Source: a virus (taxonomy: Duplodnaviria; Caudoviricetes). From it: a stretch of 64,000 nt of DNA. Of the stretch, positions 3,715-63,811 are shown piece after piece (the stretch's first letter is position 1; every line of letters begins with the position of its first letter). The notes beneath the pieces were generated by a model. It saw only the letters and a list, made by a program, of their open reading frames with translations. It did not search any database and had not been told where the DNA came from. The stretch lies in the IMG/VR virus record IMGVR_UViG_3300044856_000190, positions 2,195 to 66,194 of that record; one strand, written 5' to 3'. Made by a program: the position numbers and the translations under genes.

Positions 3715-3726
3715 TATCTATTTGTT
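3715..3726 (-). promoter_or_regulatory. AACA-N6-TA promoter
   Basis: Reverse strand AACA AATAGA TA, divergent from 3761. Confidence 0.65.
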
Positions 3727-3760
3727 CTCCTGTAGCTTCGGTAATTTATTATATAATAAT

Positions 3761-3772
3761 AACACATAAGTA
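3761..3772 (+). promoter_or_regulatory. AACA-N6-TA promoter (AR9 nvRNAP type) upstream of the non-coding region and tRNAs
   Basis: AACA CATAAG TA. Confidence 0.65.
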
Positions 3773-4299
3773 GAAGAAAATATCGTCTTACAATAAATCA
3801 GTTAAATCCGTGCATGGTATTCGCTTGAAAAAGACGTCGTTTAAACGAATTTGATTTTATGGATGGTATAAACTTCATCGGATTATAATTTAATAATTCT
3901 TGGGAGTAGAAATCAAAAATAGTTATTAAATATAAATGGATTCTTTTGTTTAAAGTATAATGAGCTCTTTACCAGTACTTAGACAAGGCTACAATTGGAT
4001 ATTTATTTTTAGAAAATAATTTTAGAAGAAAGAAAATATATTATAGAGATCTATCATAAAAAGTTATACTCATTTTAAAAATAAATTGAAACAAAAACTC
4101 ACTATAACAATATGCAAGCAACAATTCATTAGTATTTATTATACTTTTACAAGGATCAGTTTGATTCGGCTTATAGAAAAATATTTAAGATACTATAAGA
4201 TTTTAATACTCCATTTATAGCTGAATTGTAAATATCGAAATCGGTCAATTATAATGTGTATTATAGTGATTTAATTGATATCGGGTTCAGCTATATTAT

Positions 4300-4372
4300 A
4301 GGGCTATCGCCAAGCGGTAAGGCACGGGATTTTGATTCCCGCATTTCGTTGGTTCGAATCCAACTAGCCCTG
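4300..4372 (+). tRNA. tRNA-Gln(UUG), CCA not encoded
   Basis: Acceptor stem AGGGCTA/TAGCCCT, D arm GCC-AAGCGGTAA-GGC, anticodon arm CGGGA-TTTTGAT-TCCCG, T loop GGTTCGAATCC. Confidence 0.95.
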
Positions 4373-4376
4373 CTAA

Positions 4377-4448
4377 TCCTCAATAGCTCAATGGTAGAGC
4401 ATTCGGCTGTTAACCGAAGTGTTGTAGGTTCGAGTCCTATTTGAGGAG
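4377..4448 (+). tRNA. tRNA-Asn(GUU), CCA not encoded
   Basis: Acceptor stem TCCTCAA/TTGAGGA, D arm GCTC-AATGGTA-GAGC, anticodon arm TTCGG-CTGTTAA-CCGAA, T loop GGTTCGAGTCC. Confidence 0.95.
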
Positions 4449-4558
4449 TTTGAACAGATATTCTTCCTATTTGTTCATATTCGTGCGTTCTATATGTTAT
4501 CATCTCTAGGGTAGTAATACTCTAGAGATAAAAATTTGGAAAACTCTTATATTTTAAT

Positions 4559-4603
4559 TATATAATATAAAAGTGAATAGAAGATAGATATATCATCTAT
4601 TCA
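4559..4603 (+). promoter_or_regulatory. early-type promoter plus 5' leader hairpin
   Basis: TATATAATATA then TGAATAG...CTATTCA; block duplicated at 5364-5401. Confidence 0.6.
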
Positions 4604-5363: not shown

Positions 5364-5401
5364 TATATAATATAATATTGAATAGAATATATTCTATTCA
5401 A
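5364..5401 (+). promoter_or_regulatory. early-type promoter plus 5' leader hairpin (duplicate of 4559 block)
   Basis: TATATAATATA then TTGAATAGA...TCTATTCAA. Confidence 0.6.
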
Positions 5402-6999: not shown

Positions 7000-7004
7000 T
7001 TAAT

Positions 7005-7032
7005 AAACCAGTGGGAGAAATCTCGCTGGTTT
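7005..7032 (+). terminator. intrinsic terminator
   Basis: AAACCAGTGGGAGAAATCTCGCTGGTTT plus T tract. Confidence 0.8.
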
Positions 7033-7077
7033 ATTTTTTCCTTTCTATATATAATTTCACAGATTAATAAAGAAAGG

Positions 7078-7500
7078 ATGTGTTTATTTTTTATGAGCTT
7101 AGATAGTTTAAAGCATAAAGCGTTTTTAGATTGGGTTGAAGACTTTTCTAAAACGAATACAGAATATACAAGATTTAAAAGAAGATTTAGTACAAATAAA
7201 AACTTAAAACTTGAATTGGGAGTTATTAAGGCAGGATATAAAGCTATTACTGGAAATGAATGTGATTTCTATGCAATGCAAACAATATTATCTACTATTA
7301 TAGATTTTAAGAAAAAAGAGATTGATAAATTTATTACAGATTTTAATAAATCTGAAAATAAGACTGTAGATGACTATGATACTTTCGCATATAATTTGAA
7401 TATTATAACAGAAGATATGATATTGATCAATTTACATAAAGATCTCCTAGATAAGCAGTATAGAAAACATCATATTAATACATCAAATAGGAGGTATTGA
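7078..7500 (+). CDS. hypothetical protein (about 135-140 aa)
   Basis: ORF downstream of CACA-N6-TA motif at 7058-7069. Confidence 0.7.
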   Translation: MCLFFMSLDSLKHKAFLDWVEDFSKTNTEYTRFKRRFSTNKNLKLELGVIKAGYKAITGNECDFYAMQTILSTIIDFKKKEIDKFITDFNKSENKTVDDYDTFAYNLNIITEDMILINLHKDLLDKQYRKHHINTSNRRY

Positions 7501-7501
7501 T

Positions 7502-8674
7502 ATGGCAAATCAAGATACAGATGTAGTTATTGAAAAACTATATCCAGTTGTTGAAGCTGCTATGAATAAAAGATCTGGAAGATTTTTAAGAGCAGTTCAG
7601 ACATTTATCAATAATAGACACGAAGAGATTTTTGCTATAGCTCCTTATGATAGAATCTATTTCAATCAGAATGATAAAAAATCTTTATATGAAGCTCTTG
7701 GATTCAGAGAAAAAGAAATAGAAGATATTGTTAAGGAATGTTTCTTTTGGGGAATTGATTATACTCCTCATGCAGCAAAAGAACCATATGTAGAATTACT
7801 TATGTGCATTATAAGATATTATTGTAAGAAAAATCAGAAAAAGAATGCAGAGGTTACTACAATATATTTAGCATTCACTGGTAAATTCTATGTATCGTTA
7901 CATTGTTATTTTTGGAAAAAGTTTCCACCAGATAAATCGGTATTGGATTATGTAATCAATACTATGATTTCTGATAAATTTGATCTGAAAAAAGAAGGAT
8001 CAGTATTTGGAGCTATTCGTAAATTATGTTCTACTTGGCTAGAGACATATAATGGACAGTTGATGAAAGATCCATCTGATGATGAAATTGGTAAATTAAT
8101 ACAGCAGTTAAGAGATAGAGAGAAATCTTTCTTAAAGAATATTGCTAATCTTTATTTTGAAGCTTACGAAAATAAATCTTATTTAAATTATGAAACTGAT
8201 AATTTATCTGCTGATGAATTTCGTATTACTGATAATGATGCTGCTACAGCTGCACGTATTACAGAATCTGCTGTAAATAAAATGACATCACAAGCTGTAA
8301 ATATTAAAATTTGTGCTCAGTGTAAAAATGAAAATGTAAAAACTACTGAGGTAAAACAAATTATTGAAGGTATTCTAAGAGATCGAGATAATATACAAAA
8401 ACTTAGAAGAGTTGTAAATATTATTATCTGTGATTATATGTATGGTCATAGAGCTAGAGTTGGTAGTGCTGAATTTATCAACTATACAATGAAAGCTAAG
8501 CCAAATACAAAATCCAAAATGCTCATAGAAATGAAGTCTACAATTATATCTTGGATAGAAGAAAATTCTATTAGATACAGAGACTCAAAAAGTCTTGGAA
8601 CTCGTAATAACTTTTATCGAAGTATATTATTGTATCTTACTCTCATTATATGTAGCGTTTGTAACGAAGGGTAG
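7502..8674 (+). CDS. alpha-helical hypothetical protein (390 aa), possible sigma-like RNAP subunit
   Basis: SD AGGAGG; helical composition; the sigma-like call is speculative (see findings). Confidence 0.35.
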   Translation: MANQDTDVVIEKLYPVVEAAMNKRSGRFLRAVQTFINNRHEEIFAIAPYDRIYFNQNDKKSLYEALGFREKEIEDIVKECFFWGIDYTPHAAKEPYVELLMCIIRYYCKKNQKKNAEVTTIYLAFTGKFYVSLHCYFWKKFPPDKSVLDYVINTMISDKFDLKKEGSVFGAIRKLCSTWLETYNGQLMKDPSDDEIGKLIQQLRDREKSFLKNIANLYFEAYENKSYLNYETDNLSADEFRITDNDAATAARITESAVNKMTSQAVNIKICAQCKNENVKTTEVKQIIEGILRDRDNIQKLRRVVNIIICDYMYGHRARVGSAEFINYTMKAKPNTKSKMLIEMKSTIISWIEENSIRYRDSKSLGTRNNFYRSILLYLTLIICSVCNEG

Positions 8675-8686
8675 TAATGTTTTAAG

Positions 8687-8995
8687 ATGCAAGGTTATGT
8701 TATAGAAAGCATCATAGAGATGTATACAAAGGAAAATTTAAGTGCTGCTAAAATTGGAGACGAAATGGGAATGTCTGAAACAACAGTTCGTAAAGTTTTA
8801 GCAAGACATAATATCAGAAAATCTGAAGAACAGATACATTTTGCTAGAATTAAGAATCATACTTATGAGAAATTAAATGATAATACATTTATAAGAGAAG
8901 ATGGAAAGATTATGAAGAAGATGACAAAAGAACAAATAATGAATATGTATAAAATTCATAATCCTAAATATCAATCAGCTAATAATAAAAAGTAA
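8687..8995 (+). CDS. helix-turn-helix DNA-binding protein (102 aa)
   Basis: LSAAKIGDEMGMSETTVRKVLAR fits an HTH pattern. Confidence 0.7.
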   Translation: MQGYVIESIIEMYTKENLSAAKIGDEMGMSETTVRKVLARHNIRKSEEQIHFARIKNHTYEKLNDNTFIREDGKIMKKMTKEQIMNMYKIHNPKYQSANNKK

Positions 8996-9052
8996 AAATA
9001 CAACTTTTTATTAATAGACTATAATAAATATATCATTTAAGGAGGAATTACT

Positions 9053-9811
9053 ATGAATAATAACATTAGTCTTGTTACCATTATTGCAGCTGTAATTATT
9101 GCAGCTATTGTAATATTTGGTATTTATCTTTACTTAAAAACAGCTAAGAATAAGAAGAACACAGACGCTGCTCAGAAGTTCTTAGATGAATTGAAGGATG
9201 CTCTTTTTGCAACAGCAGAGAATATCGTAGATAGTTTCGATTATTCGAAATATAAAAATCTCGAGGATGCTGAAAAAGCTATATTGACAGAAATTTATGA
9301 CGGTGCTTGGGATTATATTAATCAAATCCTTATGTCCTCAAGTAACCGTGTTGCTAAGCTCGCAGCTAAAGTATTAACTAGAGATATGGTTGTAACATAT
9401 CTACAGAAGCTGTTTGAAGAGCTTGGACTTATTGATACTATCGGTCAGAAGTATGCAGCTTTAAATATTTCATTAAACTCTGATGCTGTAGTTGCTGAAG
9501 ACCAATCATTACAGGATGAATTTACTGATCAGGATAAATATAATGAAGATACAACTGAAGCTGACTTACATGCTCCAGAGGAAGAGGAAATTCCTGATGA
9601 AGAATTGGCAAAGCTGAATCCAGCTCAGGATACAGATGAAGTTGTCTATTCAGATGATGATGAATCTGTAGAAGCAGTATCAAGTACTATCGTTATGAAG
9701 CATGATAAAAATGGTAAACCATTATATTATGAGAACGATGGACTTGGATCTTTAAAAAGAGTAACCAAATCTTATGCAACTAAGTGCGGATTACCTATAA
9801 TTGAAGATTAA
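9053..9811 (+). CDS. N-terminally membrane-anchored protein with acidic C-terminal half (252 aa)
   Basis: TM segment ISLVTIIAAVIIAAIVIFGIYLYL; D/E-rich tail; AACT-N6-TA promoter at 9002-9013. Confidence 0.7.
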   Translation: MNNNISLVTIIAAVIIAAIVIFGIYLYLKTAKNKKNTDAAQKFLDELKDALFATAENIVDSFDYSKYKNLEDAEKAILTEIYDGAWDYINQILMSSSNRVAKLAAKVLTRDMVVTYLQKLFEELGLIDTIGQKYAALNISLNSDAVVAEDQSLQDEFTDQDKYNEDTTEADLHAPEEEEIPDEELAKLNPAQDTDEVVYSDDDESVEAVSSTIVMKHDKNGKPLYYENDGLGSLKRVTKSYATKCGLPIIED

Positions 9812-9872
9812 TAAATGGGAGATGGGAATAATCCCATCTCCTGTTATTTTTTGTAAAGGTGGTGAAATCATT

Positions 9873-10064
9873 ATGAGTAGAAAGAAACAGGATTTAGAAG
9901 TAGTATTGAATAAAAATAAAAAAGATGCTCTATTATCTACCAATATACCAAACTATGATATTTATAAGCCATATGCAGAATATGAGTATGATAAAAAGAA
10001 AATGGAAGAGCATAAAATAATTCATGATGAGATTAATAGAGTTGCTATGACAGATATATTATAA
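9873..10064 (+). CDS. small hypothetical protein (63 aa)
   Basis: Start reassigned to ATG 9873 after SD AAGGTGG; the upstream part of the ORF call overlaps a terminator. Confidence 0.6.
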   Translation: MSRKKQDLEVVLNKNKKDALLSTNIPNYDIYKPYAEYEYDKKKMEEHKIIHDEINRVAMTDIL

Positions 10065-10144
10065 AAACGAAGGAGGTAGCCATATGCAATTTCTGCATAT
10101 GGCTTTTGCCCAATGTTTAATCAAGTAATTTCAACAGTAACCCA

Positions 10145-11500
10145 TTATTTTAATGTTCCAGAATTAATACGTCTCTTAGAGAATACATTATGCATAGAAT
10201 CTAATTCATTGATATAATTTCTATCATAATATACAGCAATATGAATTACACCTTCATCTTCTGGATGATCAAATATAATTATATTTGTTTTCCAATCCAT
10301 AGTAAACTTTACATTTCTCTGAATATCTTCATCTCTATAAAGTTTAATATTTACAAACTTAAATGGAGATACTCCGACTTTTAATGAATCTGCTATTGCT
10401 CTTCCTAATGGATTATTAGTAGATCCAAATATATCAGATAAATCAATTTCAGTATCACCTTTATCACATTGATAATCTGTTACTGCTCCTTGATTCCAAC
10501 CATGCTCATCTACTTTAGGAACTTCAAATAGATTAATACTATATATAGCAACACAACCTTCATTTGCTTCTTTTATAGCAATAGAATCCATTAATTCTTC
10601 TGGAGCATAATATGCATAATAATGAGGGATAGGAATAGTTAATACAGCATTCATTTCTACATGATAATTGAAGTCTAACTTACCATCTCTTTCTCCATCA
10701 TCTAATTGTAATTTGTCTCTGACAGCAATATGAGTGTATAAATTATTAATTCTAATAAAGTACTCTGGTTGTTGATTAATTGCTCGTAATTTAAATAAGA
10801 ATACCACGTCAGAGTGTTGATTTAGATACTCTAAGAAGAGTAATATTTCTTTTACTTCTCCTTTTTCATCTAATTCAAATCCTGTACGTTTTGCAATATC
10901 AGTAATTATATATTTTGGTACATGAAAATCTACACTAATGTATCTGTATTGTGTAGAACCATTTCTAAAATATAATTCCATACGATTAAATGTATCTAAT
11001 TGCTCAGATCTAGAATTTACTCTTACCTTAAAAGCAAAATCCATTCTTAATGCTCTGGGCATAAATCCTAAAAACATATTTCTTTCATAATCTTTAAAGA
11101 AAGCATCCTGAGAATTTGATCTTTTTAAATAAATCTCTGGAGGAGCTTGATATAAATCTAATCCTTCACGATCAAAATCATATTCTACTGTAGGAGCTAT
11201 TCTAGCTCTAGGATTTTGACCTTTTATAATATTTTTCATTGCATATTCATTTAATCTTTTATAATCGTCTAATACATTCTTTCCATCAATATAAATTCCA
11301 CCACGGAAAAAATCTTTTGGAAATTTACTTTTAAACCAATCATACATATATTCAATTGCTAGTGAATATCCATGTACATAAGATGGTAATGCTAAATTTC
11401 CATATAATTTCTTTACGTTATATATTCCAGCATCACTTACAGGAACATCTCTTAACTCAAATTGTTGTTGCATATCAGCAAGAGAAATTGGCTTTCCCAT
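10145..11500 (-). CDS. probable virion structural (tail/neck-associated) protein (451 aa)
   Basis: AACT-N6-TA promoter at 11532-11543; divergent from the hub-like gene; function inferred. Confidence 0.4.
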   Translation of the reverse strand: MGKPISLADMQQQFELRDVPVSDAGIYNVKKLYGNLALPSYVHGYSLAIEYMYDWFKSKFPKDFFRGGIYIDGKNVLDDYKRLNEYAMKNIIKGQNPRARIAPTVEYDFDREGLDLYQAPPEIYLKRSNSQDAFFKDYERNMFLGFMPRALRMDFAFKVRVNSRSEQLDTFNRMELYFRNGSTQYRYISVDFHVPKYIITDIAKRTGFELDEKGEVKEILLFLEYLNQHSDVVFLFKLRAINQQPEYFIRINNLYTHIAVRDKLQLDDGERDGKLDFNYHVEMNAVLTIPIPHYYAYYAPEELMDSIAIKEANEGCVAIYSINLFEVPKVDEHGWNQGAVTDYQCDKGDTEIDLSDIFGSTNNPLGRAIADSLKVGVSPFKFVNIKLYRDEDIQRNVKFTMDWKTNIIIFDHPEDEGVIHIAVYYDRNYINELDSMHNVFSKRRINSGTLK

Positions 11501-11531
11501 TATATAATCTCCTTTCTCTAGAAAGTTTAAT

Positions 11532-11579
11532 TATACTAAAGTTCAGATTTTATAATCTATCAGATTTCACATCGGGATA
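11532..11579. promoter_or_regulatory. divergent pair of late-type promoters
   Basis: Minus strand AACT TTAGTA TA (11532-11543); plus strand CACA TCGGGA TA (11568-11579). Confidence 0.6.
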
Positions 11580-11608
11580 ATATTACTAGTATGAAAGGAG
11601 TTATTATT

Positions 11609-12916
11609 ATGGCTATTGATTTAGCTTATGAAGCTGAAATTACTCTGGGGTTTAATTATAATAAAACTCGATTAATTAATATAGAACAAGCTCGAATATC
11701 ATATATTATGATAGAGCATAAATATGAGTCAGTTAATATTCTTCCAGTAATATATCTTGCTGTAAGTTTATCTTCTGATATGTATACTAAAGTCGTAACC
11801 TCTTATAAGAAATCTAGTTTTCGACTTAAGATTAAAAAGAGAAATGCTTTATTATCCAGCTCTATACAATCTACAGTTGTTGATGATGAGTTTACTTATA
11901 TTCCATCTTCTACAAATCCAAATATATCTGCACAGATTAATTCAAATGCAGATTCAGATGGTAATTCTTATAGATCAATTACATTAGGATTAGTATCTCA
12001 ATCTATGACAAATAAATTAAGACAATCATTCAATGGAATATATAATAATATATCTGAGAATGAAATTATTGATCTTGGATTGAAGGGAATTAGAAAAGTA
12101 ATTAAGGAAGATATTGTAAATAATGAAAAATATGATACAATTATTATTCCTCCATTAGCTTCTAGATATAAGCTATTAAATTTCTTATTTGATCGTGATC
12201 CTTTTTATGATACAGGATTTACATTCTATATGGATTTTAAAGATACTGTATATTTATTATCGAAGAATGGTAAAGCAGTAGATGCACAAGATGGAAAACC
12301 TACAGATGTAATTATAGATATACTAGAGATAGATGATTCAGATTCATTTAAGGAAGGATTTCAATTAAAGAATAAAGCTTATAGAATTGCTATAAACTCT
12401 TCAGATACAAATGTAACTTTAAATGGGGCTACAGCAAAAGTAGCAAATCAAATAGTTGCTTATGAAGATGATTTGAAACATGCAGAAACTTTAAATTTGA
12501 ATATGAATAATAGTGATACTGCTACTCGTAAAATGTTTGTTCGTTCTAATGCTGGTACTGTATTGAAATCAGAATTAGAGACAAATGCTTTTATGATAGA
12601 GCTATTAAAAAAGAATATTGATAGTGATATATTTACTCCAAATAAAGCTTATAAAGTAAATAATATTTCTCAATATTCTGAATATAATGGTAATTATATT
12701 CTTTCTTATAAACGAGAATTTTATAAGTTATCAGAAGGTACTACTGGTAGATTTATAGTAACTTGTAATGTAGGATTGAAAAGAGTTTCTAATCCTAGTA
12801 ATGAATATATCTCTAATAGTGGAGGTATTATTAGTAAATCTGGAACTACAATGAGACGTACAACTTCTAGAAAAACTACAAGTGAAAATAGAATTAACAA
12901 TAGAAAGAAACTTTAA
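11609..12916 (+). CDS. probable baseplate hub (T4 gp27-like) protein
   Basis: Start ATG 11609 (SD AAGGAG); size and C-terminal pattern FTPNKAYKV...YNGNYILSYKREFY resemble the last hub domain; CACA-N6-TA promoter at 11568-11579. Confidence 0.4.
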   Translation: MAIDLAYEAEITLGFNYNKTRLINIEQARISYIMIEHKYESVNILPVIYLAVSLSSDMYTKVVTSYKKSSFRLKIKKRNALLSSSIQSTVVDDEFTYIPSSTNPNISAQINSNADSDGNSYRSITLGLVSQSMTNKLRQSFNGIYNNISENEIIDLGLKGIRKVIKEDIVNNEKYDTIIIPPLASRYKLLNFLFDRDPFYDTGFTFYMDFKDTVYLLSKNGKAVDAQDGKPTDVIIDILEIDDSDSFKEGFQLKNKAYRIAINSSDTNVTLNGATAKVANQIVAYEDDLKHAETLNLNMNNSDTATRKMFVRSNAGTVLKSELETNAFMIELLKKNIDSDIFTPNKAYKVNNISQYSEYNGNYILSYKREFYKLSEGTTGRFIVTCNVGLKRVSNPSNEYISNSGGIISKSGTTMRRTTSRKTTSENRINNRKKL

Positions 12917-12920
12917 AAAT

Positions 12921-12947
12921 TCCTCTAGGGTGATAAGCCCTAGAGGA
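12921..12947. terminator. bidirectional terminator
   Basis: TCCTCTAGGG/CCCTAGAGGA between convergent genes. Confidence 0.8.
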
Positions 12948-12953
12948 TATATT

Positions 12954-13937
12954 TTATTCTTCTTTATCATCATCCATATCTAATTCAAGCATTAATTTTG
13001 GTTCTGCATTTTCTATAAAATCCAATAGATCTTTTTTCTTTCTTGGATCTATTTTATAAACCTGCTTAGTCGCATCAAAACTATTATCTTCATTTACATA
13101 TGATTGTTCCATAACCCAGTATGTTTCACCATTATCAAAATACATTTCTGGATTAAATGAATCTAAATATACTGGATGGCATGAAATTGAATAGTAATCA
13201 GTTCTTTCATATCTTGTTCTATGATCAGATCCATCCATAAGTATTCCCAAATTATCATATGTTAATTCTATAGTAGTCTTATGAATGCCATTTTCAAAAT
13301 AGATAACTGCTTGAGGATAGAATAAATTCTTATCTGGGCAATTAGGAATAGCAAGCATTCCTGTATATGATGTATTAATCATATTTCCATCTTTAGATAA
13401 TATAGTATATGCATCTATACTAAATGGTTTTGATGATACATTATAAGTAAATGCAGTATTACCAAATATTATTATTTCATATTCAAGTTTTAAATCACCG
13501 TCAGATTTCACTGATAATACTCTTGCTGTATTATTTTCAAATAGCATACACATATTTTCTTCATCTACTTCAAATGTGTATAATATTTTATTATGATCTG
13601 GTAACTCTAATGGAAGAGAAGCTTTATATTTTCCATTGATTATATTATCTTTTGGAGCTTGGCGCATAGTTAAGCTTAATGCCTTATCAGGGGTACTATG
13701 ATTACGAATCTCTAAAGCTTTGCTTAAATTTTCTGGAATCAAATTGCAATTAATATGTCTTTTTCTTCCATGATGCTTCATTTCACCAGTATAATGAAAA
13801 ATTGAACCATTTACTTTTTCCATAGTCAAATCTACATCTGATATATCGTTCTTATATGTCATAGCAGCAATAGAATTATCTGGATTTACAAAATACATTT
13901 GTGTAGAAACTAAAGTGCCATATTCTGATAATTTCAT
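12954..13937 (-). CDS. hypothetical beta-rich protein (327 aa)
   Basis: SD AAGGAGG; AACC-N6-TA motif at 13961-13972. Confidence 0.7.
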   Translation of the reverse strand: MKLSEYGTLVSTQMYFVNPDNSIAAMTYKNDISDVDLTMEKVNGSIFHYTGEMKHHGRKRHINCNLIPENLSKALEIRNHSTPDKALSLTMRQAPKDNIINGKYKASLPLELPDHNKILYTFEVDEENMCMLFENNTARVLSVKSDGDLKLEYEIIIFGNTAFTYNVSSKPFSIDAYTILSKDGNMINTSYTGMLAIPNCPDKNLFYPQAVIYFENGIHKTTIELTYDNLGILMDGSDHRTRYERTDYYSISCHPVYLDSFNPEMYFDNGETYWVMEQSYVNEDNSFDATKQVYKIDPRKKKDLLDFIENAEPKLMLELDMDDDKEE

Positions 13938-14012
13938 TTTAAAAATCCTCCTTAATAAATTAATATGAGGTTAAAATACCAGTAGGATTTTAAATATCCT
14001 ACTGGCATATTA

Positions 14013-15464: not shown

Positions 15465-15503
15465 TTGAAGGTACCTCCTTTTTGTATAAATTTGATATCA
15501 AAT

Positions 15504-15549
15504 TATAATGATGTTGCTTTAAAACCCAAAATTGGTAATATACTATAAT
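15504..15549. promoter_or_regulatory. divergent late-type (minus) and early-type (plus) promoters
   Basis: Minus strand AACA TCATTA TA (15504-15515); plus strand AATATACTATAAT (15537-15549). Confidence 0.6.
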
Positions 15550-15586
15550 CATGATAAAATAATATATTTTTGGAGGATACTAAATT

Positions 15587-16531: not shown

Positions 16532-16560
16532 TAATATTTTAAAAATAGGAGGATAAATAA

Positions 16561-18714: not shown

Positions 18715-18780
18715 GTTTATTTTTTATTATATTATCAACGATTCTATAATATTAGAAATAAGGCTTAAGGAGAAAATATT

Positions 18781-22076: not shown

Positions 22077-22117
22077 ATATTATCTATTCTGGAACACCAG
22101 AATAATCTCGAAAATTT

Positions 22118-24429: not shown

Positions 24430-24441
24430 TATAAACATGTT
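24430..24441 (-). promoter_or_regulatory. AACA-N6-TA promoter of the gp53-like gene
   Basis: AACA TGTTTA TA. Confidence 0.65.
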
Positions 24442-24543
24442 TTTGATAATAAACTATATACATGAAAGGAGAAATTGAATATGAATACAGGATAATTAAT
24501 TTTTAAAAATGAATGATACTCATTAGTAATGGAGGATTAAGAA

Positions 24544-26658
24544 ATGAAATATAATCAAAAATATCATTACCCATATGAAGACCTGTGTAATACAGGTCAT
24601 CAAACAATCTATACGAAAGATTTAAATCAAGATAATATTAATAGTCATTTTAATTCGATTATTAATATTTTAAAAGATGGTATTGAAACACCTGAAGTTC
24701 AAGCGATGATGCTTCATGTCGTGTTCGAAAATGATACTGACTTAGATTTAAGTATATTCGATTATACAATCAATCTAATGTTTTGGCAATTCTGTACAAT
24801 TGTGAATCATCCAATCTGGGATGTACATGTGATATTCCCAGAAGATATTACAAAGAAATATATCAAAGAGTATATTGATAATATATTCGTTGATAAGTAT
24901 AGAAAGAAACTTCCATTTATAGAACTCAATCAAACGATTGATGCAGTAATTGGAAAGTTTAGAGATCTTAGACAGTTCCAGATGTATTTGGCAAATACAT
25001 TAAATCTTGAGGATACTATAGATCTTATGAATAAGTATCCAGAGTTCAATGAAACTGTTCACTTTGATACAACTGGCATTCCTCTTGAAGATATTAAGGA
25101 AGCTGGTATGGCAGCTACAAATAAACAGATCAGATATATAAAGAATTCTGATCACTGTTTAAGAGATTCATTCAGAACTGGTGAAGCAATATCTCCAAAG
25201 CAGTATATAGAGGTTGCTGTTAATATTGGATCAAAGCCAGATGGACAAGGATCAGTATTCCCTCATCCAATCAAGCATTCATTTATGAATGGTGGTTTAC
25301 AATCAGCAGAAGAAATATGTATTGAATCTTCTGTAGGTCGAGTAGCTCAGATTTTACAGAAAACAAACGTTGGTGAATCAGGTGCGTTTGCTAGACAGCT
25401 TGAGCTGAATAATCAGGATACTTTCTTAAATCCAGATCCAAACTATGTCTGTGATACACATAATTTCGAAGAGATTACTATTGAGAATGAAACTATGCTT
25501 AATATGTATGATCTGAGATATTATAGAACCAATCCAAACGGTATTGATAAGAAACTCAATGCTAAGAAAGATAAAAATCTTATCGGTCAACGATTATTCT
25601 TTAGATCTCCAATGACTTGTGCAAGTGCTGCAAGAGGACATGGTATTTGCTATAAGTGTTATGGTGATCTTGCATATGCTGAGCAGGAAATCAATATTGG
25701 ACAGATTGCTGCAGAAGGATTATCTTCTATCTATACACAGATCTTACTTTCTGCAAAGCATCTTCTTGAATCTCTTGTTATTAAAATGGAATGGACAAAG
25801 CAATTCTATGAATTGTTTACTATTACTTTTAATACAATTGCTTTAAAGGAGAATGGTACTTATCGTGGATATAAATTGATTATCGATGATGATATTAAAT
25901 CTGAGGAGGAGATAGATGATATAGAATATAATTACTATATCAATAGCTTTATTGTAAGAACTCCTGATGGAGAAGATATTAAAATCAAAACAACAGAAGC
26001 TGATAATATTTATATTGAACCAGATTTCTATCAATATATTATGTCAGTTCAACCTGAGGATGATAATTCTGATGAATCTTACTATGTAGAATTAAACATG
26101 GTAGATTTAATGGATTTCCCAGTTCTGTTTGTAGTTCAGGTAAGAAATAATGAGTTATCTGCAACTATGGATAAGATTAAGAAATTGATAGATAATAAAT
26201 CTATTATCGAATCTTATGATCGTAATTCAATTCTGAAAGAATTTATTACGACAAATATTCAAGGTAATATCAAATTAAATGCAGTACATTTTGAGGTATT
26301 ACTTATGAATCAGATTAGAGCTGCTGATGATGATCTTGATGTTCCTGATTGGACAATTCCAAATGCTCCATACAAGATTCTGACATTGAGTAAATCATTA
26401 TCAGAAAATAGATCAATCACTGTTAGATTACAGTCTAACAAAGTTTCAAAAGCTCTTTCAAATCCACAAAATAGATTTATCAGTAAACCTTCGATGACTG
26501 ATATCTATTTCATGGAACAGCCTCAGGAATATTTAGATCCAGAAATGATCTCAGATGAGTATGTTCCGAAGAGTGATAAAGAAGAAGAAGTTATCCAACC
26601 AATTAGTTTTGATAATCCAAAACTTAGAGTTGGTAGAAGAATAGGTAAAAAGAAATGA
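24544..26658 (+). CDS. rpoC: split multisubunit RNA polymerase beta' C-terminal subunit (704 aa)
   Basis: Bridge-helix-like KTNVGESGAFARQL; Zn site RSPMTC...ICYKCYG; trigger-loop-like NIGQIAAEGLSSIYTQILLSAKH. Confidence 0.9.
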   Translation: MKYNQKYHYPYEDLCNTGHQTIYTKDLNQDNINSHFNSIINILKDGIETPEVQAMMLHVVFENDTDLDLSIFDYTINLMFWQFCTIVNHPIWDVHVIFPEDITKKYIKEYIDNIFVDKYRKKLPFIELNQTIDAVIGKFRDLRQFQMYLANTLNLEDTIDLMNKYPEFNETVHFDTTGIPLEDIKEAGMAATNKQIRYIKNSDHCLRDSFRTGEAISPKQYIEVAVNIGSKPDGQGSVFPHPIKHSFMNGGLQSAEEICIESSVGRVAQILQKTNVGESGAFARQLELNNQDTFLNPDPNYVCDTHNFEEITIENETMLNMYDLRYYRTNPNGIDKKLNAKKDKNLIGQRLFFRSPMTCASAARGHGICYKCYGDLAYAEQEINIGQIAAEGLSSIYTQILLSAKHLLESLVIKMEWTKQFYELFTITFNTIALKENGTYRGYKLIIDDDIKSEEEIDDIEYNYYINSFIVRTPDGEDIKIKTTEADNIYIEPDFYQYIMSVQPEDDNSDESYYVELNMVDLMDFPVLFVVQVRNNELSATMDKIKKLIDNKSIIESYDRNSILKEFITTNIQGNIKLNAVHFEVLLMNQIRAADDDLDVPDWTIPNAPYKILTLSKSLSENRSITVRLQSNKVSKALSNPQNRFISKPSMTDIYFMEQPQEYLDPEMISDEYVPKSDKEEEVIQPISFDNPKLRVGRRIGKKK

Positions 26659-34741: not shown

Positions 34742-34771
34742 TTTTAACACCTCTCTAAACCTATCTATAAT

Positions 34772-34783
34772 TAATATAGTGTT
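34772..34783 (-). promoter_or_regulatory. AACA-N6-TA promoter of the operon carrying the 240-aa beta fragment
   Basis: AACA CTATAT TA. Confidence 0.65.
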
Positions 34784-39238: not shown

Positions 39239-39489
39239 CTTTTAATGCTTTTAAGTATTACAATTTATATTATAAAATAATACATAAATCTAATTTATTT
39301 TTTAAACCTCGTGGGTTTATACGAGAATTGTTTTTTATATTCGTTTATAACACTTCAGTGTGTGTAAACTATCGAATATAGATTCATTCAGAAAGATATT
39401 AATAAAAAAGATTTATATGAACTTGCCAATAAGTATGACTGATACTCAGCATATTTTATAATATATTCATCTTAGGAGGTAACAGAAAA

Positions 39490-47384: not shown

Positions 47385-47396
47385 AACTTTATATTA
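47385..47396 (+). promoter_or_regulatory. AACT-N6-TA promoter of recA
   Basis: AACT TTATAT TA. Confidence 0.6.
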
Positions 47397-48719: not shown

Positions 48720-48764
48720 CATATATTATATAAATGATAGAGGGTTGAATAGCAATCCTCTATC
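48720..48764 (+). promoter_or_regulatory. early-type promoter plus 5' hairpin upstream of beta-C operon
   Basis: CATATATTATATA; GATAGAGG/CCTCTATC. Confidence 0.6.
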
Positions 48765-49143: not shown

Positions 49144-51366
49144 ATGGCTGGATTAAATTTCTCACAGCAGATTGAAGAGAATACAAAAAATCTTAAATCA
49201 ATGGAACAAGTTTTAGGAAAAGGTCTCATGCAACCATTCAACGGTTGTAATGCAGGTGCTCGAAAGTTAATGCATAATGTGCATAGAGATCATGTGTTTC
49301 CATTGATGAATGGTGAGAAAGCTATACTTGAAACTGGATATGAAATTAGATTCGGAGATTATTCTAGTTCTATTACTAGAGCAGATTCTAATTATCAGGT
49401 AGTAGCAAAAATCAGCAAATTTTCATTTGCACCAAATCATCACTATTGGATTATAGTAAAAGATATGAAAACTGGAGTTCTTGATGTTGTAGAAAGAATT
49501 TCATATCATTATATTACAGAGTCTTATGGATATTTATATAATAATGAATATCTTGACAGCTTAAATGTAGGAGATATAATTCCTGAGAATACAGTTGTTC
49601 AGAAATCATTAGCATTTGATGAATATAATAATAGAAAAGATGGAGTAAACTTTAATGTTGCTTATCTTGCATTGGATGATAATATGGAGGATTCGATGGT
49701 ATTCTCTGATGTAGCAGCTGGTAGACTTACATCACCTTTGATTAATCCAGTAGAGATTAAGATAAATGATAATGATATCCCCCTTAATATTTATGGTGAT
49801 GATACTCATTATAAGATTATTCCAGATATTGGAGAGGAAGTTGTTGATGCAAACTTAATTGCATTAAGAAAGGAAAAGAAAGAAGAATCATATTTTACTC
49901 AATCTATTAATAGATTAAGAGATATTATGATATCTGATGAAAAGAAGAGAGTTCATGGTCGTGTTATCGATATTAAGGTTTATTGTAATAATCCTGAGAT
50001 TCTCGATTCTCACTATTATAGCCAACTTAAGATGTACTATGAGGAGAACAAGCGATACAATAAGGAAATTGTACAAGTGCTGTTACCATATGCTTCATCA
50101 AATGTAAAGATGACTTATGATCTTCAGAAATTATTTGCTACTGCTAAGAGAGTAATGAATAATGATCCATATATCGATAAGAGACCTTTCTCTAATATTT
50201 CTATTGAGATTGATGTATTAGAGGAAAAGCAAATGGAAGCTGGAGATAAGAGTGCAAATAGATTTGGTGGAAAAGGAGTTGCATCTTGTATCTGGCCTCA
50301 GAGTATGATGCCTAGATTTAAGAATGGTAAAGGTGAGTGGGAATATGTTGATGTAATCTTCAACAGTTCTACTATGGTTAACCGTGAAAATGTAGGACAG
50401 TGCTTTGAGTTATCAATTAATCATATTGGTAGTTCTATAATCGATAAGATCATTTCTGATAATATTCAATTAAAAGAAGCTTATGAAATGATTCTGAAAT
50501 TTATTAGTGTACTTGCACCTGAACAGGCAGAATTTATGAAAGAGAAATGTGAAAAAATGAGCTATGATGAATTAGCATTCTTCATTGGTTCTATTGTAAA
50601 TTCTGGATCTATTCATCTTTCTATGAAGCCATTGACAGATGTAATGACAATTGATAAGTTAGCACAGTTGTACAAGATTTTCCCTTGGGTAGAACAGACA
50701 GAAGTTGAAGTTCCATTAGTTGGTTCTGATGGCAATATTCGTTATGTACCTGCTCGAAGAAGAATAGTTGTAGGTAAACAGTATCTATTCAGATTAAAAC
50801 AGTTTGCAGAAGAAAAATATTCTGCCACATCATTATCTGCTACTAATATTAGAAACGAGAATACTAAGTCTAGAGTAAAGAAAGATTTCAGAGAGCTATA
50901 TCCAAATACTCCTATTAGATTTGGTAATATGGAGACAAATAATATGGCTCATATTGGTGTAGAACCATTGATAGCTAATATGATGATTCATAGTTTATCT
51001 CCTCAAGGACGAAGATTAGTAGAACAGATGTATACTGGAGATCCATTCCATATTGATATCAAGCTTGATAGTAATTCTAAGAATAGATCTGCAGAAATTG
51101 CAAATACATATCTGAAAGCAATTGGTAGACGATTAATGTTTATCAAGAAACCAAAAGATATTACAAAGATTACGGTTAGTCCAGTTTCATTTGATCATGA
51201 TATCTATAAAGTTCCTGTATACTTTATACCTGAAAATCAGAGAAAGAGTTTTGATTTTGAGAAAGACTTTAAAGAGCGTGAAAGAATTGAGAAGCTGAAA
51301 AAGAAACGTCATGCAGTTAGTCCTGTACGTTTCGAAGGTATAGATCGTCGTAGAGGCAAAAGATAA
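49144..51366 (+). CDS. rpoB: split RNA polymerase beta C-terminal subunit (740 aa), probably non-virion RNAP
   Basis: GVNFNVAYLALDDNMEDS, GDKSANRFGGKGV, DVIFNSSTMVNRENVGQCFE, GKQYLFRLKQ and PIRFGNME motifs. Confidence 0.92.
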   Translation: MAGLNFSQQIEENTKNLKSMEQVLGKGLMQPFNGCNAGARKLMHNVHRDHVFPLMNGEKAILETGYEIRFGDYSSSITRADSNYQVVAKISKFSFAPNHHYWIIVKDMKTGVLDVVERISYHYITESYGYLYNNEYLDSLNVGDIIPENTVVQKSLAFDEYNNRKDGVNFNVAYLALDDNMEDSMVFSDVAAGRLTSPLINPVEIKINDNDIPLNIYGDDTHYKIIPDIGEEVVDANLIALRKEKKEESYFTQSINRLRDIMISDEKKRVHGRVIDIKVYCNNPEILDSHYYSQLKMYYEENKRYNKEIVQVLLPYASSNVKMTYDLQKLFATAKRVMNNDPYIDKRPFSNISIEIDVLEEKQMEAGDKSANRFGGKGVASCIWPQSMMPRFKNGKGEWEYVDVIFNSSTMVNRENVGQCFELSINHIGSSIIDKIISDNIQLKEAYEMILKFISVLAPEQAEFMKEKCEKMSYDELAFFIGSIVNSGSIHLSMKPLTDVMTIDKLAQLYKIFPWVEQTEVEVPLVGSDGNIRYVPARRRIVVGKQYLFRLKQFAEEKYSATSLSATNIRNENTKSRVKKDFRELYPNTPIRFGNMETNNMAHIGVEPLIANMMIHSLSPQGRRLVEQMYTGDPFHIDIKLDSNSKNRSAEIANTYLKAIGRRLMFIKKPKDITKITVSPVSFDHDIYKVPVYFIPENQRKSFDFEKDFKERERIEKLKKKRHAVSPVRFEGIDRRRGKR

Positions 51367-54350: not shown

Positions 54351-54386
54351 CATATATTATATACTTGATAGGTATAAATCTTATCA
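54351..54386 (+). promoter_or_regulatory. early-type promoter plus 5' hairpin
   Basis: CATATATTATATA; TGATAGG/CTTATCA. Confidence 0.55.
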
Positions 54387-54424
54387 CAAAATAATATTAT
54401 TTTATCTTATAAGGAGGACATGAC

Positions 54425-55947: not shown

Positions 55948-56002
55948 TTTTTCTTTTTAAAATTTTGTAATAATATATTATTACAAAGATTTGGAGGATA
56001 CA

Positions 56003-57817
56003 ATGAATCAGTTAAATCAAGCACAATTTATGAGGGAATTCAATGAAACTCATAGAGAACAATTTAACCCAGAGCTCTTTAAAAGAGATAATGATGAAAT
56101 TGTAGAAGCTATTCGTGAAGTAGTAACTTCTTGTCAGAGAGATAAGTACTATACTCTAAAACTTTTATCATTTACCCCAATTTATGATTATGAGGAAATC
56201 TATAATACTCTTAGGGAGCATGATGAAAAACGTAAGAAAAAGAATGATAAATCTCCAAATGTATATGACTTTATCAATATTCGTGATACAGATATGATTT
56301 TGATTAAAGTTATTTGGTTGATACGTCATAATGGAATTGAACGTCAGGATGATAATGGAAAAACAGTCGATGTCGTTAATCCAGAAAAGGAATTAGAAGT
56401 TCTGATAGCAGTTCCAAGATTTACTCGTAATTATTATTTCAAATTAAGTGGAAATTACTATGCTACAATTTTCCAGATTGTGGATGGTTCTACTTATAAT
56501 AACTCTACTGCTAGTAATAGTAAGGTAGATACAGTAACTATGAAAACAATGTTTATGCCTATTCGTATCTTTAGAGGATTCAATACTCTGACAGATGTAG
56601 GAACAGGTGAACAGATTAAGCTGATAGAATATCAGTCTATCATTTTCAATAATACAGTAAACTGTATTTATTATATGCTTGCTCGATTTGGATTATATGG
56701 TACTGCATCTTTCTTAGGAATTCGTTGTGTATCAATTACACAATCTCCAGTATTAGATCCAAATTATTATTGCTTTGAAAAGAATGGTATTTATATCAGT
56801 TGTCCTATATCTTGTTTTCAGGATGCTATGGTTCAGAGTTTTGTTGGTACTATCTATGATGGTATTATGAAAGAATCAAATATCAATGTAATCTTTGATC
56901 AGAGATTCTGGTTAAGAAATCTTGGTATGGCATTTAAAAATGCAAGTGTAGATAAAGGTCTTTTCGTACTTGATTCTGTAGAAGGAATCTATGATAATAT
57001 TACAAAGCAGGATCTTCATCTTCCAGAATGTGATAAATATGATATTTATTGTGTGTTGAGATGGCTCTTAAGAGAATTCTCTAAATTAAGAGTAAAAGAA
57101 AATGTTGATGTAAGAACGAAGAGGATTCGTATTCCAGATTATGTAGCTGCTGTTTATGCAAATAAGTTGAATAAAGGTATTCATAGAATATCTGACTTAG
57201 GAACAAAGGTTACATTAAAGAAAGTAGAGCAAGCTATTTATACAAATCCAATGCTGGTATTACAGAAGATTTCATCTGCATCAATGTCAAACTTGGTATC
57301 TTATCGAGACCTTGTAAATGATATGGATGCTATGGTTGCATTAAAGTATACTTATAAAGGTATCTCTGGATTAGGTGAGGATGGAGCTAGTATTCAGCCA
57401 ATCTATCGTTATGTAGATCCAAGCCATGTAGGTATTCTTGATCTTGATGCATCTTCAGCTTCTGATCCAGGAATGTCTGGAATGATTTGTCCTATGGCAA
57501 AGTTGTATGGTTCCGATAATTCATTCTCAGAATATAATGAACCTAATTCTTGGAGATCAGAATTTAAACCAATTCAGGATAGTTATTTTGAAGGAAAGGT
57601 ATCTCCTGTTGTATTTAATAATAATTCTCCTAGAATGAATATGCAGTTTTATCCTAATAGAGATAGAATTGTTCAGGAAGAGTTGGATATCAATCGAGTA
57701 ATCTGTCCAGTAGAAAATCTGAATGATCCAAGTATTACTTATACTTGCTCAGAGGCAAAACTGGAACAAATGCAAGTAGAAAAACCAAAATCTTTATTTA
57801 CGATTAGAGATAATTAA
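56003..57817 (+). CDS. rpoB: split RNA polymerase beta N-terminal subunit (604 aa), probably non-virion RNAP
   Basis: Start ATG 56003 (SD GGAGG); VP......F.LSGNYY..IFQIVD, and fork-loop-like YRYVDPSHVGILDLDASSASDPGMSG (compare R.VH.SHYG..CP..TPEG..G). Confidence 0.85.
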   Translation: MNQLNQAQFMREFNETHREQFNPELFKRDNDEIVEAIREVVTSCQRDKYYTLKLLSFTPIYDYEEIYNTLREHDEKRKKKNDKSPNVYDFINIRDTDMILIKVIWLIRHNGIERQDDNGKTVDVVNPEKELEVLIAVPRFTRNYYFKLSGNYYATIFQIVDGSTYNNSTASNSKVDTVTMKTMFMPIRIFRGFNTLTDVGTGEQIKLIEYQSIIFNNTVNCIYYMLARFGLYGTASFLGIRCVSITQSPVLDPNYYCFEKNGIYISCPISCFQDAMVQSFVGTIYDGIMKESNINVIFDQRFWLRNLGMAFKNASVDKGLFVLDSVEGIYDNITKQDLHLPECDKYDIYCVLRWLLREFSKLRVKENVDVRTKRIRIPDYVAAVYANKLNKGIHRISDLGTKVTLKKVEQAIYTNPMLVLQKISSASMSNLVSYRDLVNDMDAMVALKYTYKGISGLGEDGASIQPIYRYVDPSHVGILDLDASSASDPGMSGMICPMAKLYGSDNSFSEYNEPNSWRSEFKPIQDSYFEGKVSPVVFNNNSPRMNMQFYPNRDRIVQEELDINRVICPVENLNDPSITYTCSEAKLEQMQVEKPKSLFTIRDN

Positions 57818-59550: not shown

Positions 59551-59562
59551 AACTTTTATATA
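59551..59562 (+). promoter_or_regulatory. AACT-N6-TA promoter of sbcC
   Basis: AACT TTTATA TA. Confidence 0.6.
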
Positions 59563-62272: not shown

Positions 62273-62292
62273 TTTAAAGGAGGAATATTATT

Positions 62293-62565
62293 ATGAATCT
62301 TATTGTATTAAACAATGAATTGAAAGAATTGGAAGAGAAATTACGTTTAACAAAGAACGCAGTAGACAGAGCAATTCTTGCTGATAAAATCAGATTAAAG
62401 AAAGAGCAGATTAGAAAAGAAAATGAAGTAGAGGACGAGAATTGTGATGATTGTTCTCCCGCTACCCCTGTAGTAAAACCTACTACAGCTCCAAATAATA
62501 CTCCAGTTGATCGTAAAGATATTAAACGTGGAGAAGCTATGGATGTAAATAACAATAAGAAATAA
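62293..62565 (+). CDS. small coiled-coil protein (90 aa)
   Basis: SD AAGGAGG; heptad-rich N-terminus. Confidence 0.7.
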   Translation: MNLIVLNNELKELEEKLRLTKNAVDRAILADKIRLKKEQIRKENEVEDENCDDCSPATPVVKPTTAPNNTPVDRKDIKRGEAMDVNNNKK

Positions 62566-62570
62566 ATAAG

Positions 62571-62599
62571 AACCAGTAGAGTGATAAGCTCTACTGGTT
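62571..62599. terminator. bidirectional terminator
   Basis: AACCAGTAGAG/CTCTACTGGTT between convergent genes. Confidence 0.8.
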
Positions 62600-62608
62600 T
62601 CTTTTTTG

Positions 62609-63706
62609 CTAATACTGAGAAGTAACGTCATCATTGATAACAACAATAGGAAATGTTTCATTAAGGTTAATATTCTTTGCAGTCTTAGTTTTAAGATCAA
62701 GAGTTGTATCAGCCATAAACATTTCATCATATACAGGTACATTTGGAATTACCTGTCCTGTAGCAAGATTCATCATCTGGAACATCTTATTTCCAGTAGA
62801 AGCATCATATACTACAACCTGCTTAACATTAGGATCTCCCTCATATCTCATAAGATTCTGCTCAGGTGTTAAATTACTCTCATAATTCAGATATCCTAAA
62901 TCTAACTGTCCGCCTTGTGCAATATTTCCATCTCTTAAATCTGCCCTTACGATACCAGATCCAAAGATAGAACTATCAACCTGTGGAACCTGAGGAGACT
63001 GTATATTAACCTGAGGGTTAGCAATAAATGATTTATACAGATCTGCAATGTATTTATCATCATTCATAGCAGACTGAGCAGCCTTCTGATCTTTATATCT
63101 CTTATAATCAAGATCATTTGACTTGGTAATTGAGTTATTGATTTCTCGAATAGCTGCAATTCTATTACTAATTCCAGATCCAATATTCTCAGATAATCCG
63201 ATCATTACATTGTATTTGTTTTTCATAGTTCTACTATGACTAACCATATCAAACTGACTAACTAATTCTCTATTAATTGCATCAATCTGTCCGAGAGTTT
63301 CTCTCAGCATTCCAGTTGTTTCAGCATAAGTATATGATGTAGGTGCATCTTCTACAACTCCATCTACTTTATCAGGCTTTTCATCTTTTGCTTTTACAAT
63401 TCCTTCAACTTTCTTAGAAGCTGGTAAGTCTGATTTAGATTTTTTTCGTCTTTTTCGATTCTCAACTTCAAAATCTGAAGGATCATCAATTGTAATAGTA
63501 TTCTCTTTATTCACACTGAATAAATGTTTCTTTTTTCCAGATCCTTCCATTGTAATTTCTGGTGGTTGATACGGTACTGGCTTTGGAACCATATTTTGTA
63601 CCTGGGGATTCTGTTGCATTTGCTGAGTATACATTGACATGTTTTGATTAGTATTATACATATCCATAGGAATTCCACTAAATTGTGGAGAGTTGATATA
63701 TTCCAT
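62609..63706 (-). CDS. hypothetical protein (365 aa) with Q/N/M-rich N-terminus, basic patch and coiled coil
   Basis: SD AAGGAGG; early-type motif at 63726-63740. Confidence 0.75.
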   Translation of the reverse strand: MEYINSPQFSGIPMDMYNTNQNMSMYTQQMQQNPQVQNMVPKPVPYQPPEITMEGSGKKKHLFSVNKENTITIDDPSDFEVENRKRRKKSKSDLPASKKVEGIVKAKDEKPDKVDGVVEDAPTSYTYAETTGMLRETLGQIDAINRELVSQFDMVSHSRTMKNKYNVMIGLSENIGSGISNRIAAIREINNSITKSNDLDYKRYKDQKAAQSAMNDDKYIADLYKSFIANPQVNIQSPQVPQVDSSIFGSGIVRADLRDGNIAQGGQLDLGYLNYESNLTPEQNLMRYEGDPNVKQVVVYDASTGNKMFQMMNLATGQVIPNVPVYDEMFMADTTLDLKTKTAKNINLNETFPIVVINDDVTSQY

Positions 63707-63799
63707 TTTTGTAACCTCCTTTATGATTATATAATATAAAATTGAATTATGTATTCAGATTATTTCCCTGTAATTCATTTTGAAAAGTAGTCATGGAAA

Positions 63800-63811
63800 A
63801 ACATTCGATTA
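63800..63811 (+). promoter_or_regulatory. AACA-N6-TA promoter
   Basis: AACA TTCGAT TA. Confidence 0.65.

Follow-up and report, generated by a model that had tools for sequence, protein, structure and literature searches.

We studied a 64,000-nucleotide (nt) stretch of DNA from an uncultured tailed phage (hereafter the window), which makes up bases 2195-66194 of a single 66,194-bp virus record, IMG/VR IMGVR_UViG_3300044856_000190 (hereafter G000). Upstream of many of its genes lies a short motif, (A/C)AC(A/T)-N6-TA, that resembles the late promoter of Bacillus phage AR9. The motif is real, depends on its spacing, is conserved at orthologous genes and is avoided inside genes; subunits of a phage RNA polymerase of the AR9 kind are encoded in the same DNA. 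Taken as a whole, the evidence makes it probable that these sites are AR9-type promoters with relaxed recognition at positions -11 and -8, read by the non-virion RNA polymerase of the phage, and likely on DNA that contains thymine. By the same account, the source would be an AR9-like giant phage of anaerobic or gut habitats, with about a quarter of its genome in the window.

To our knowledge, the AR9 late promoter is the only one known that a multisubunit RNA polymerase reads on the template strand, and this reading is linked to uracil DNA. The published late consensus, AACA-N6-T(A/G), ends at the base where transcription starts, and the early consensus is AAATATATATTAT-N6-G (PMC5312081). At AR9 replication genes, and at four of the five genes for subunits of the non-virion polymerase, promoters of both types are present; gp105 is the sole early-only subunit, and the AR9 tRNA gene is late (PMC5312081). 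The holoenzyme reads 3'-UUGU-5' on the template strand and requires uracil at -11 and -10 (PMC7598289). The -10 uracil is held between I207 of gp226 and R363 of gp105 and is bonded to K375 of gp105, while the side chain of V206 in gp226 keeps out the 5-methyl group; the mutant V206G takes thymine (PMC9209446). What the earlier note on this DNA says of this literature is accurate.

Over the whole window the pattern MACN-N6-TA (M, A or C) was depleted, with 173 occurrences versus 267 expected; therefore, the upstream regions alone were tested. Intergenic DNA is the only place where the signal is seen. Gene starts were confirmed via the Shine-Dalgarno motif, and the ribosome site was trimmed from the upstream regions. 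For 37 hand-curated upstream regions we observed 14 occurrences of AAC-N7-TA in sense orientation versus 5.7 expected, a count that none of 1,000 dinucleotide shuffles reached; the adjacent spacings occurred 3 times and once. However, one control triplet, GTT-N7-TA, showed enrichment as well when the window was taken alone (11 vs 4.8); by itself, the window was thus only moderately convincing, and replication was sought.

With automatic gene calls for the whole 66-kb contig, AACN-N6-TA was found 21 times versus about 8 expected (z about 5). The same pipeline, applied to AR9 as a positive control, gave 67 occurrences of AACA-N6-TA versus 12 (z 16); therefore, the method does recover a published motif. 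N6 was the only enriched spacing among ten tested in G000, in its relative G004 and in AR9. Single-base substitutions in G000 showed specificity for A(-10), C(-9), T(-1) and A(+1), with A or T at -8 and A or, more weakly, C at -11. G at +1 was weakly enriched in G000 and not enriched in G004.

Relatives were found among IMG/VR contigs, five of which carry a polymerase beta C protein 63-73% identical to that of the window. The contigs overlap at 100% identity in two cases (G001:46634-124387 with G004:1-77754, 77,754 bp; G002:1-28675 with G005:1-28675, 28,675 bp). Thus, each pair represents one phage and there are three independent relatives, G001+4 (at least 247.6 kb), G002+5 (92.8 kb) and G003, which are about 47-55% identical to G000 in protein. 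Although its label gives G004 as 100% complete with inverted terminal repeats, G001 continues for another 46.6 kb beyond it, and this extension carries a gene for a ThyX-like protein.

The N6 spacing peak appeared in each of the three relatives. Pooling the four phages (376 upstream regions), we counted 128 occurrences of AACN-N6-TA versus 69 (z 7.4) and 51 of CACN-N6-TA versus 20.6 (z 6.7). AAC and CAC ranked first and second among the 64 triplets, and TA was the sole dinucleotide enriched after AAC-N7. The form CACA-N6-TA occurred 28 times versus 6.6 (z 8.2), and the C at -11 of the site at 11568 is kept in the G001+4 orthologue; the suggestion of the earlier note that CACA variants reflect relaxed specificity at -11 is thereby borne out statistically. 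In the same pooled regions, CACN-N9-TA (44 vs 20, z 5.4) and CACN-N11-TA (37 vs 20, z 4.0) were enriched as well.

Conservation was assessed gene by gene. For G001+4, a site was present at the orthologue of 15 of 16 G000 genes that have a site, compared to 3 of 12 genes that do not (p = 3e-4). Summed over the three relatives, the numbers were 28/36 and 6/23, respectively (p = 1e-4). For example, the site at 15504, AACATCATTATA, reads AACATCCTTATA, AACATCGTATTA and AACATCATAATA in the relatives: spacer bases change, and AAC and TA are kept.

Independent evidence came from the genes themselves. Compared to synonymous-codon shuffles, MACW-N6-TA (W, A or T) inside genes had an observed/expected ratio of 0.58 in sense and 0.44 in antisense in G000, and 0.69 and 0.61, respectively, in G001+4. 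The depletion was seen at the N6 spacing only, with ratios of 0.67-0.99 at other spacings. Such avoidance argues that the short motif has enough activity for selection to act against it in places where it is unwanted.

All 12 primary sites and the three variants listed in the earlier note were found at the positions and on the strands given there (Table 1). The final A lies 23-59 nt upstream of the start codon, with the exceptions of the sites at 3761 (528 nt before a tRNA pair) and 39349 (129 nt). Among them, the TG variant at 39349 is neither conserved nor supported, and the site at 7058 is ambiguous, since it overlaps an early-type match. Further likely sites, at 22093, 34758 and 54385, had been missed. 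Among the genes preceded by sites are one for a virion structural protein and an operon with a fragment of the virion polymerase.

The enzyme that could read such promoters is partly encoded in the window. Pieces of a split multisubunit RNA polymerase are present, and a local comparison with the annotated AR9 genome identified homologues of the non-virion subunits gp154, gp089 and gp105. The genes for UvsX, beta C, ligase and beta N follow one another in the same order as in AR9. The two gp105 residues that hold the -10 base in AR9, R363 and K375, are unchanged when the window beta N is aligned with gp105. For the remaining holoenzyme parts, gp270 (beta-prime N) and gp226, homologues are present in G001+4 (for gp226, E 3e-18) and were not found in G000. 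With motif, spacing and position all matching AACA-N6-T(A/G), with the polymerase subunits present and with sites conserved at orthologues, the proposal of the earlier note that this phage uses the promoter logic of AR9 is supported.

What we infer from sequence is where transcription starts, when the genes are expressed, which enzyme reads the motif and which bases make up the DNA. The sites (A/C)AC(A/T)-N6-TA would serve as promoters for the non-virion multisubunit RNA polymerase that the phage itself encodes. As in AR9, the template bases opposite -11 to -8 would be bound by a gp226-like subunit together with beta N, and transcription would start at the final A. Late-type sites would drive virion genes; where they stand in tandem with early promoters of a second, AR9-like class, they would drive replication genes as well. 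Recognition would be relaxed compared to AR9, admitting C besides A at -11 and T besides A at -8, and the enzyme would most likely act on ordinary thymine DNA rather than uracil DNA.

The earlier note had also suggested that the genome may contain deoxyuridine, and here the evidence points the other way. We found ThyA above the TIGR03284 cut-off in G002+5 and G003, where ThyX and dUTPase were not found. G001+4 has no ThyA but encodes a 470-amino-acid ThyX-like protein and a dUTPase that matches B. subtilis YncF/YosS (E 3e-37); it also encodes an anaerobic ribonucleotide reductase and a deaminase-domain protein. Thus each of the three independent relatives encodes ThyA, a ThyX-like protein or dUTPase, and the ThyA genomes G003 and G002+5 show the motif strongly. 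Since the relatives encode thymidylate synthases and dUTPase, the promoter does not show uracil DNA. Moreover, a C at -11 means G in the template, so that no uracil-specific contact is possible there.

A wider view of the gp226-like subunit agrees with this. In the cultured collection, gp226 homologues were found in AR9/PBS1-like phages, BpSp, LPJP1 and phiR1-37 only, while IMG/VR has 65 further gp226-like loci, mostly on contigs of 180-310 kb. Among 32 large gp226-bearing genomes, 11 encode ThyA, 18 ThyX (never with ThyA) and 21 a member of the dUTPase family; every one of the 32 has at least one of the three (G004 via the G001 extension). No ThyA, ThyX or dUTPase was found in the five cultured AR9-like phages with known or presumed uracil DNA (AR9, BpSp, phiR1-37, LPJP1 and S6). 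The residue two positions before an invariant tryptophan, position 206, is valine in the cultured group, G004, G027 and six others. In G006, G023 and G025 (loci L054, L079 and L087), three genomes with ThyA, it is glycine, as in the engineered, thymine-accepting V206G (PMC9209446). The remaining clade members have I, T, K, M, R, P, L or A. The motif was strongest in G006, a complete genome of 256.5 kb with ThyA and glycine at 206, where AACN-N6-TA occurred 116 times versus 40 (z 12.4) and AAC ranked first of 64 triplets. In G017, which has ThyX, dUTPase and lysine at 206, the numbers were 53 versus 29.

Published markers of a uracil-DNA pathway are Dcd (dCTP deaminase) plus either Dtm (dTMP phosphatase) or Dtt (dTTP pyrophosphatase) (PMC12697855); the Bacillus phages have a UDG inhibitor as well. 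Searches with AR9 gp226, UGI, gp221 (dCMP-deaminase family) and the gp151 nucleotidase, among others, gave no significant phmmer match in the six-frame translation of G000, with the limit that phmmer has low sensitivity for small, fast-evolving proteins. In the five relatives, homologues of UGI and of the gp151-type nucleotidase were likewise not found by phmmer. A Dcd-type deaminase (AR9 gp221) is absent from G000, and a deaminase-domain match alone was seen in G001+4 and G006. About 40 window proteins compared with Pfam and PHROGs had no nucleotide-metabolism match, and a DxDx(T/V) screen gave no plausible HAD nucleotidase. The gene beside the window DNA polymerase gene is unrelated to the ThyX-like protein found at that place in G001.

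How do these results bear on other explanations? If the phage were like AR9 in every respect, it would have uracil DNA, and its polymerase would need deoxyuridines in the template at -11 and -10. The cultured phages closest to it in polymerase, PBS1/AR9, S6, phiR1-37 and LPJP1, are indeed the uracil-DNA group, and the gp226 homologue of G001+4 keeps V206, I207, W208 and S245, of which valine, isoleucine and tryptophan would fit a dependence on uracil. ThyA, ThyX and dUTPase were not found in the 66-kb contig, but this absence means little because the contig is about 27% of the genome. With thymidylate synthases or dUTPase in each of the relatives, the AR9 nucleotidase and UGI not found, template G opposite C at -11, and the motif at its strongest in a ThyA genome with glycine at 206, we consider full dependence on uracil improbable. 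The window itself, about 27% of a genome, carries no gene that decides between the two bases, and uracil DNA as such is unlikely for this phage.

Recognition by the host sigma-A factor would make the TA part of a TATAAT-like -10 box, with AAC incidental or an upstream element. Sites at 11532, 15504, 24430 and 18737 do read AAC-N5-TATAAT, and the G004 logo leans to (T/A)ATAAT at -3 to +3. On the other hand, the same A/T preferences around the start are seen in AR9 sites, no -35 or TG-extended element was seen, it is the AR9 phage polymerase that reads A-A-C at a fixed spacing, and two phage polymerase sets are encoded; host promoters are thus a very unlikely explanation. Still less credible is that the motif arises by chance in AT-rich intergenic DNA. 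The pattern has low information content, its whole-window count is under expectation, the GTT triplet was enriched in the window alone, and de novo Gibbs sampling, which found only the ribosome site, the early motif, hairpins and terminators, did not recover the AAC motif, as it carries too little information. Yet a chance origin is contradicted by the pooled enrichment, with the spacing peak repeated in every further genome tested, by the avoidance inside genes at N6 only and by conservation at orthologues.

Some observations weigh against our preferred explanation, that of AR9-type promoters on thymine DNA, and belong beside the Gibbs result. Homologues of gp226 and gp270 were not found in the 66-kb contig. 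In the nearest relative, gp226 keeps the V-I-W of the uracil-dependent AR9 group, which would fit uracil. The G001 ThyX-like protein is divergent, being below the thyX cut-off and having no match among Protein Data Bank (PDB) sequences. ThyA-family enzymes may be hydroxymethylases instead of thymidylate synthases, and which genes are present in relatives at about 55% amino-acid identity bears only weakly on this phage.

Besides the late-type sites, Gibbs sampling recovered a second motif de novo, ATATA(T/C/A)(T/A)AT-N6-G, with 14 matches versus 0.6 expected in G000, 24 versus 1.4 in G004 and 25 versus 1.7 in AR9. Arrays of hypothetical genes follow these early-type sites, as do the genes that lead up to beta C, ligase and beta N. 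The beta N gene has an early-type promoter only, like AR9 gp105. The DNA polymerase gene is preceded by early (63729) and late (63800) sites in tandem, as in the continuously expressed class of AR9 (PMC5312081).

When the predicted early transcripts were folded, the minimum-energy stem started with the predicted +1 G as its first paired base in six of six cases (shuffle z from -1.6 to -5.6). The transcript starting at 30442 has a weak terminal stem, and its main hairpin lies internally. A stem at the +1 G supports the N6-G start, and the predicted 5' hairpin may act as a stabiliser of the 5' end. A similar promoter followed by a stem-loop is annotated in the phiR1-37 record.

Table 1. Predicted promoters, polymerase genes and folded early transcripts in the window; distances run from the final A of a site to the start codon, and orthologous sites are those of the independent relatives
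Feature	Position	Strand	Context	Orthologous site or match
Late-type AACAAATAGATA	3715..3726	-	50 nt before gene 2426-3664(-)	AACAATTAGATA in G001+4 at 53 nt; AACAATTAAGTA in G002+5 at 52 nt
Late-type AACACATAAGTA	3761..3772	+	heads 528-nt leader of tRNA-Gln and tRNA-Asn (4300-4448)	
Ambiguous CACAGATTAATA	7058..7069	+	before gene 7093-7500; overlaps early-type match 7047-7062	no orthologue found
Late-type AACTTTTTATTA	9002..9013	+	39 nt before gene 9053-9811	AACTTTTTAATA in G001+4
Late-type AACTTTAGTATA	11532..11543	-	31 nt before gene 10145-11500(-)	AACTTCCTTATA in G001+4
CAC variant CACATCGGGATA	11568..11579	+	29 nt before gene 11609-12916	CACATCCGAATA in G001+4 and AACTTTGATATA in G002+5, both at 24 nt
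Late-type AACCTCATATTA	13961..13972	-	just past terminator hairpin; 23 nt before gene 12954-13937(-)	no orthologue found
Late-type AACATCATTATA	15504..15515	-	39 nt before virion structural protein gene 14013-15464(-), phrog_21032	site in 3/3 relatives
Late-type AACGATTCTATA	18737..18748	+	after terminator; 32 nt before exonuclease gene 18781-19599	AACT sites in G001+4 (29 nt) and G003 (33 nt)
Additional late-type AACACCAGAATA	22093..22104	+	before DnaB-like helicase gene	AAC site in 3/3 relatives
Late-type AACATGTTTATA	24430..24441	-	23 nt before gene 23972-24406(-)	same 12-mer in G001+4; AACATTATAATA in G002+5
Late-type AACACTATATTA	34772..34783	-	before operon 34304-34741(-) and 33570-34292(-) (gp078 match)	kept in G001+4 and G003
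Additional late-type AACCTATCTATA	34758..34769	+	59 nt before gene 34829-35323	AACC sites at 54 nt (G001+4) and 50 nt (G002+5)
TG variant AACACTTCAGTG, not supported	39349..39360	+	129 nt before gyrB homologue	no site in any relative
Late-type AACTTTATATTA	47385..47396	+	after terminator; 50 nt before UvsX-like recombinase gene	kept in 3/3 relatives, also at 50 nt in G001+4
Additional CAC site CACAAAATAATA	54385..54396	+	tandem behind early promoter 54352-54367	early and late site in G001+4
Late-type AACTTTTATATA	59551..59562	+	25 nt before SbcC-like gene	AACTTAGTAGTA in G001+4 at 28 nt
Late-type AACATTCGATTA	63800..63811	+	26 nt before DNA polymerase gene; tandem with early promoter 63729-63744	AACATCAGATTA in G001+4; AACAGTAGGTTA in G003
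Early promoter (example)	48721..48736	+	ATATA(T/C/A)(T/A)AT-N6-G	
Further early sites	2362(-), 4560, 5365, 15538, 30427, 36546, 38191, 51943, 54352, 55973, 59010, 63729		motif match	
Folded early transcripts	4575-4602, 5380-5399, 30442-30492, 38206-38244, 48736-48764, 54367-54385			
Non-virion RNA polymerase beta-prime C-terminal subunit	24544..26658	+		AR9 gp154 homologue; tblastn vs AR9 127805-129700, 30% identity, E 2e-45; phrog_3015
Non-virion RNA polymerase beta C-terminal subunit	49144..51366	+		AR9 gp089 homologue; 30% identity, E 1e-76; Pfam Rpb2 domain 6
Non-virion RNA polymerase beta N-terminal subunit	55991..57817	+	early promoter only, 55973-55988	AR9 gp105 homologue; E 3e-35
Match to part of virion RNA polymerase subunit	33570-34292	-		AR9 gp078, comparison with AR9

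The 80-nt region before the beta-prime C gene (24464-24543) has neither promoter pattern; the same is true in G001+4, and both patterns are present in G002+5. The window has a G+C content of about 29%, and CheckV gives the G000 record a completeness of 27%. Replication genes in the window include those for gyrase B and A, a NAD ligase, SbcC and a DnaB-like helicase. Among cultured phages, tblastn places PBS1/AR9, Staphylococcus S6-like phages, Listeria LPJP1 and Yersinia phiR1-37 closest, with identities that do not exceed about 30%. A megablast search of 20 kb against the phage collection gave no match. For the truncated DNA polymerase gene, a search with an exact 32-mer found no overlapping viral contig.

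A transposase-like gene lies inside the phage contig at window positions 979-1782 on the minus strand (phrog_10081, E 4e-57). Just left of the window, at G000:C1:70-1167, a tubulin/FtsZ-like protein (L142) is encoded, with a Pfam Tubulin score of 29 bits, which is below the cut-off. Tubulin-like orthologues are present in G001, G002, G003, G005, G006 and G017, and AR9 gave no tblastn match. In a published review, tubulin and the phage nucleus are tied to thymine-DNA jumbo phages. Of the 31-mers sampled from window positions 7000-16600, about 40% occur in numerous metagenomes of pig gut, gut and manure, which come from at least a dozen studies; the single RNA run found carries 5% of the sampled words. 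A metagenome of bioreactor sludge is the likely source of the DNA, and close relatives occur in the pig-gut samples.

The comparison with relatives suggests a broader picture, for and against which we see about equal weight: a large uncultured AR9-like clade, with the 65 gp226-like loci of IMG/VR, may use template-strand promoter recognition on thymine DNA, with the uracil-gating valine replaced in most members that have a thymidylate synthase, and the window would belong to a sub-clade with relaxed -11. If so, dependence on uracil would be a special case of the cultured AR9 group and not a property of the promoter class. The same late and early motifs and a gp226-like factor are shared by many gut and anaerobic giant phages with thymidylate synthases and dUTPases, and the promoter mechanism would thereby be separated from uracil DNA. 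Natural variants of the uracil gate are also on offer for biochemistry. As a caution, the late motif should not serve as a marker of uracil genomes in metagenomes.

Like the AR9/PBS1 late promoter (PMC5312081, PMC5449584, PMC9209446), the window motif has A-A-C at -11 to -9, a six-base spacer after -8 and T(-1)A(+1). Its sites are likewise positioned 20-60 nt before start codons, precede virion genes and stand in tandem with early promoters at replication genes; the split beta and beta-prime homologues, the conserved R363 and K375 and, in the clade, a gp226-like subunit complete the likeness. The early promoters share with those of AR9 the AT-rich core and the N6-G start geometry, although the upstream AAA is not conserved and core positions 6 and 7 vary. 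Other differences from AR9 concern recognition itself. The window clade takes C as well as A at -11 and T as well as A at -8, where AR9 has only A at both; the gp226 residue that in AR9 stacks on the -9 G, Y210, is not conserved in the clade; and avoidance of the motif inside genes is strong here and weak in AR9. Most clade members encode thymidylate synthase and dUTPase, which makes dependence on uracil unlikely. The late promoter of phiKZ, TATG, is similar in being a short element centred on the start site and read by a split multisubunit polymerase with a fifth subunit. However, it has no upstream AAC element, and its fifth subunit is gp68 and not gp226 (PMC7598289); the window motif matches that of AR9.

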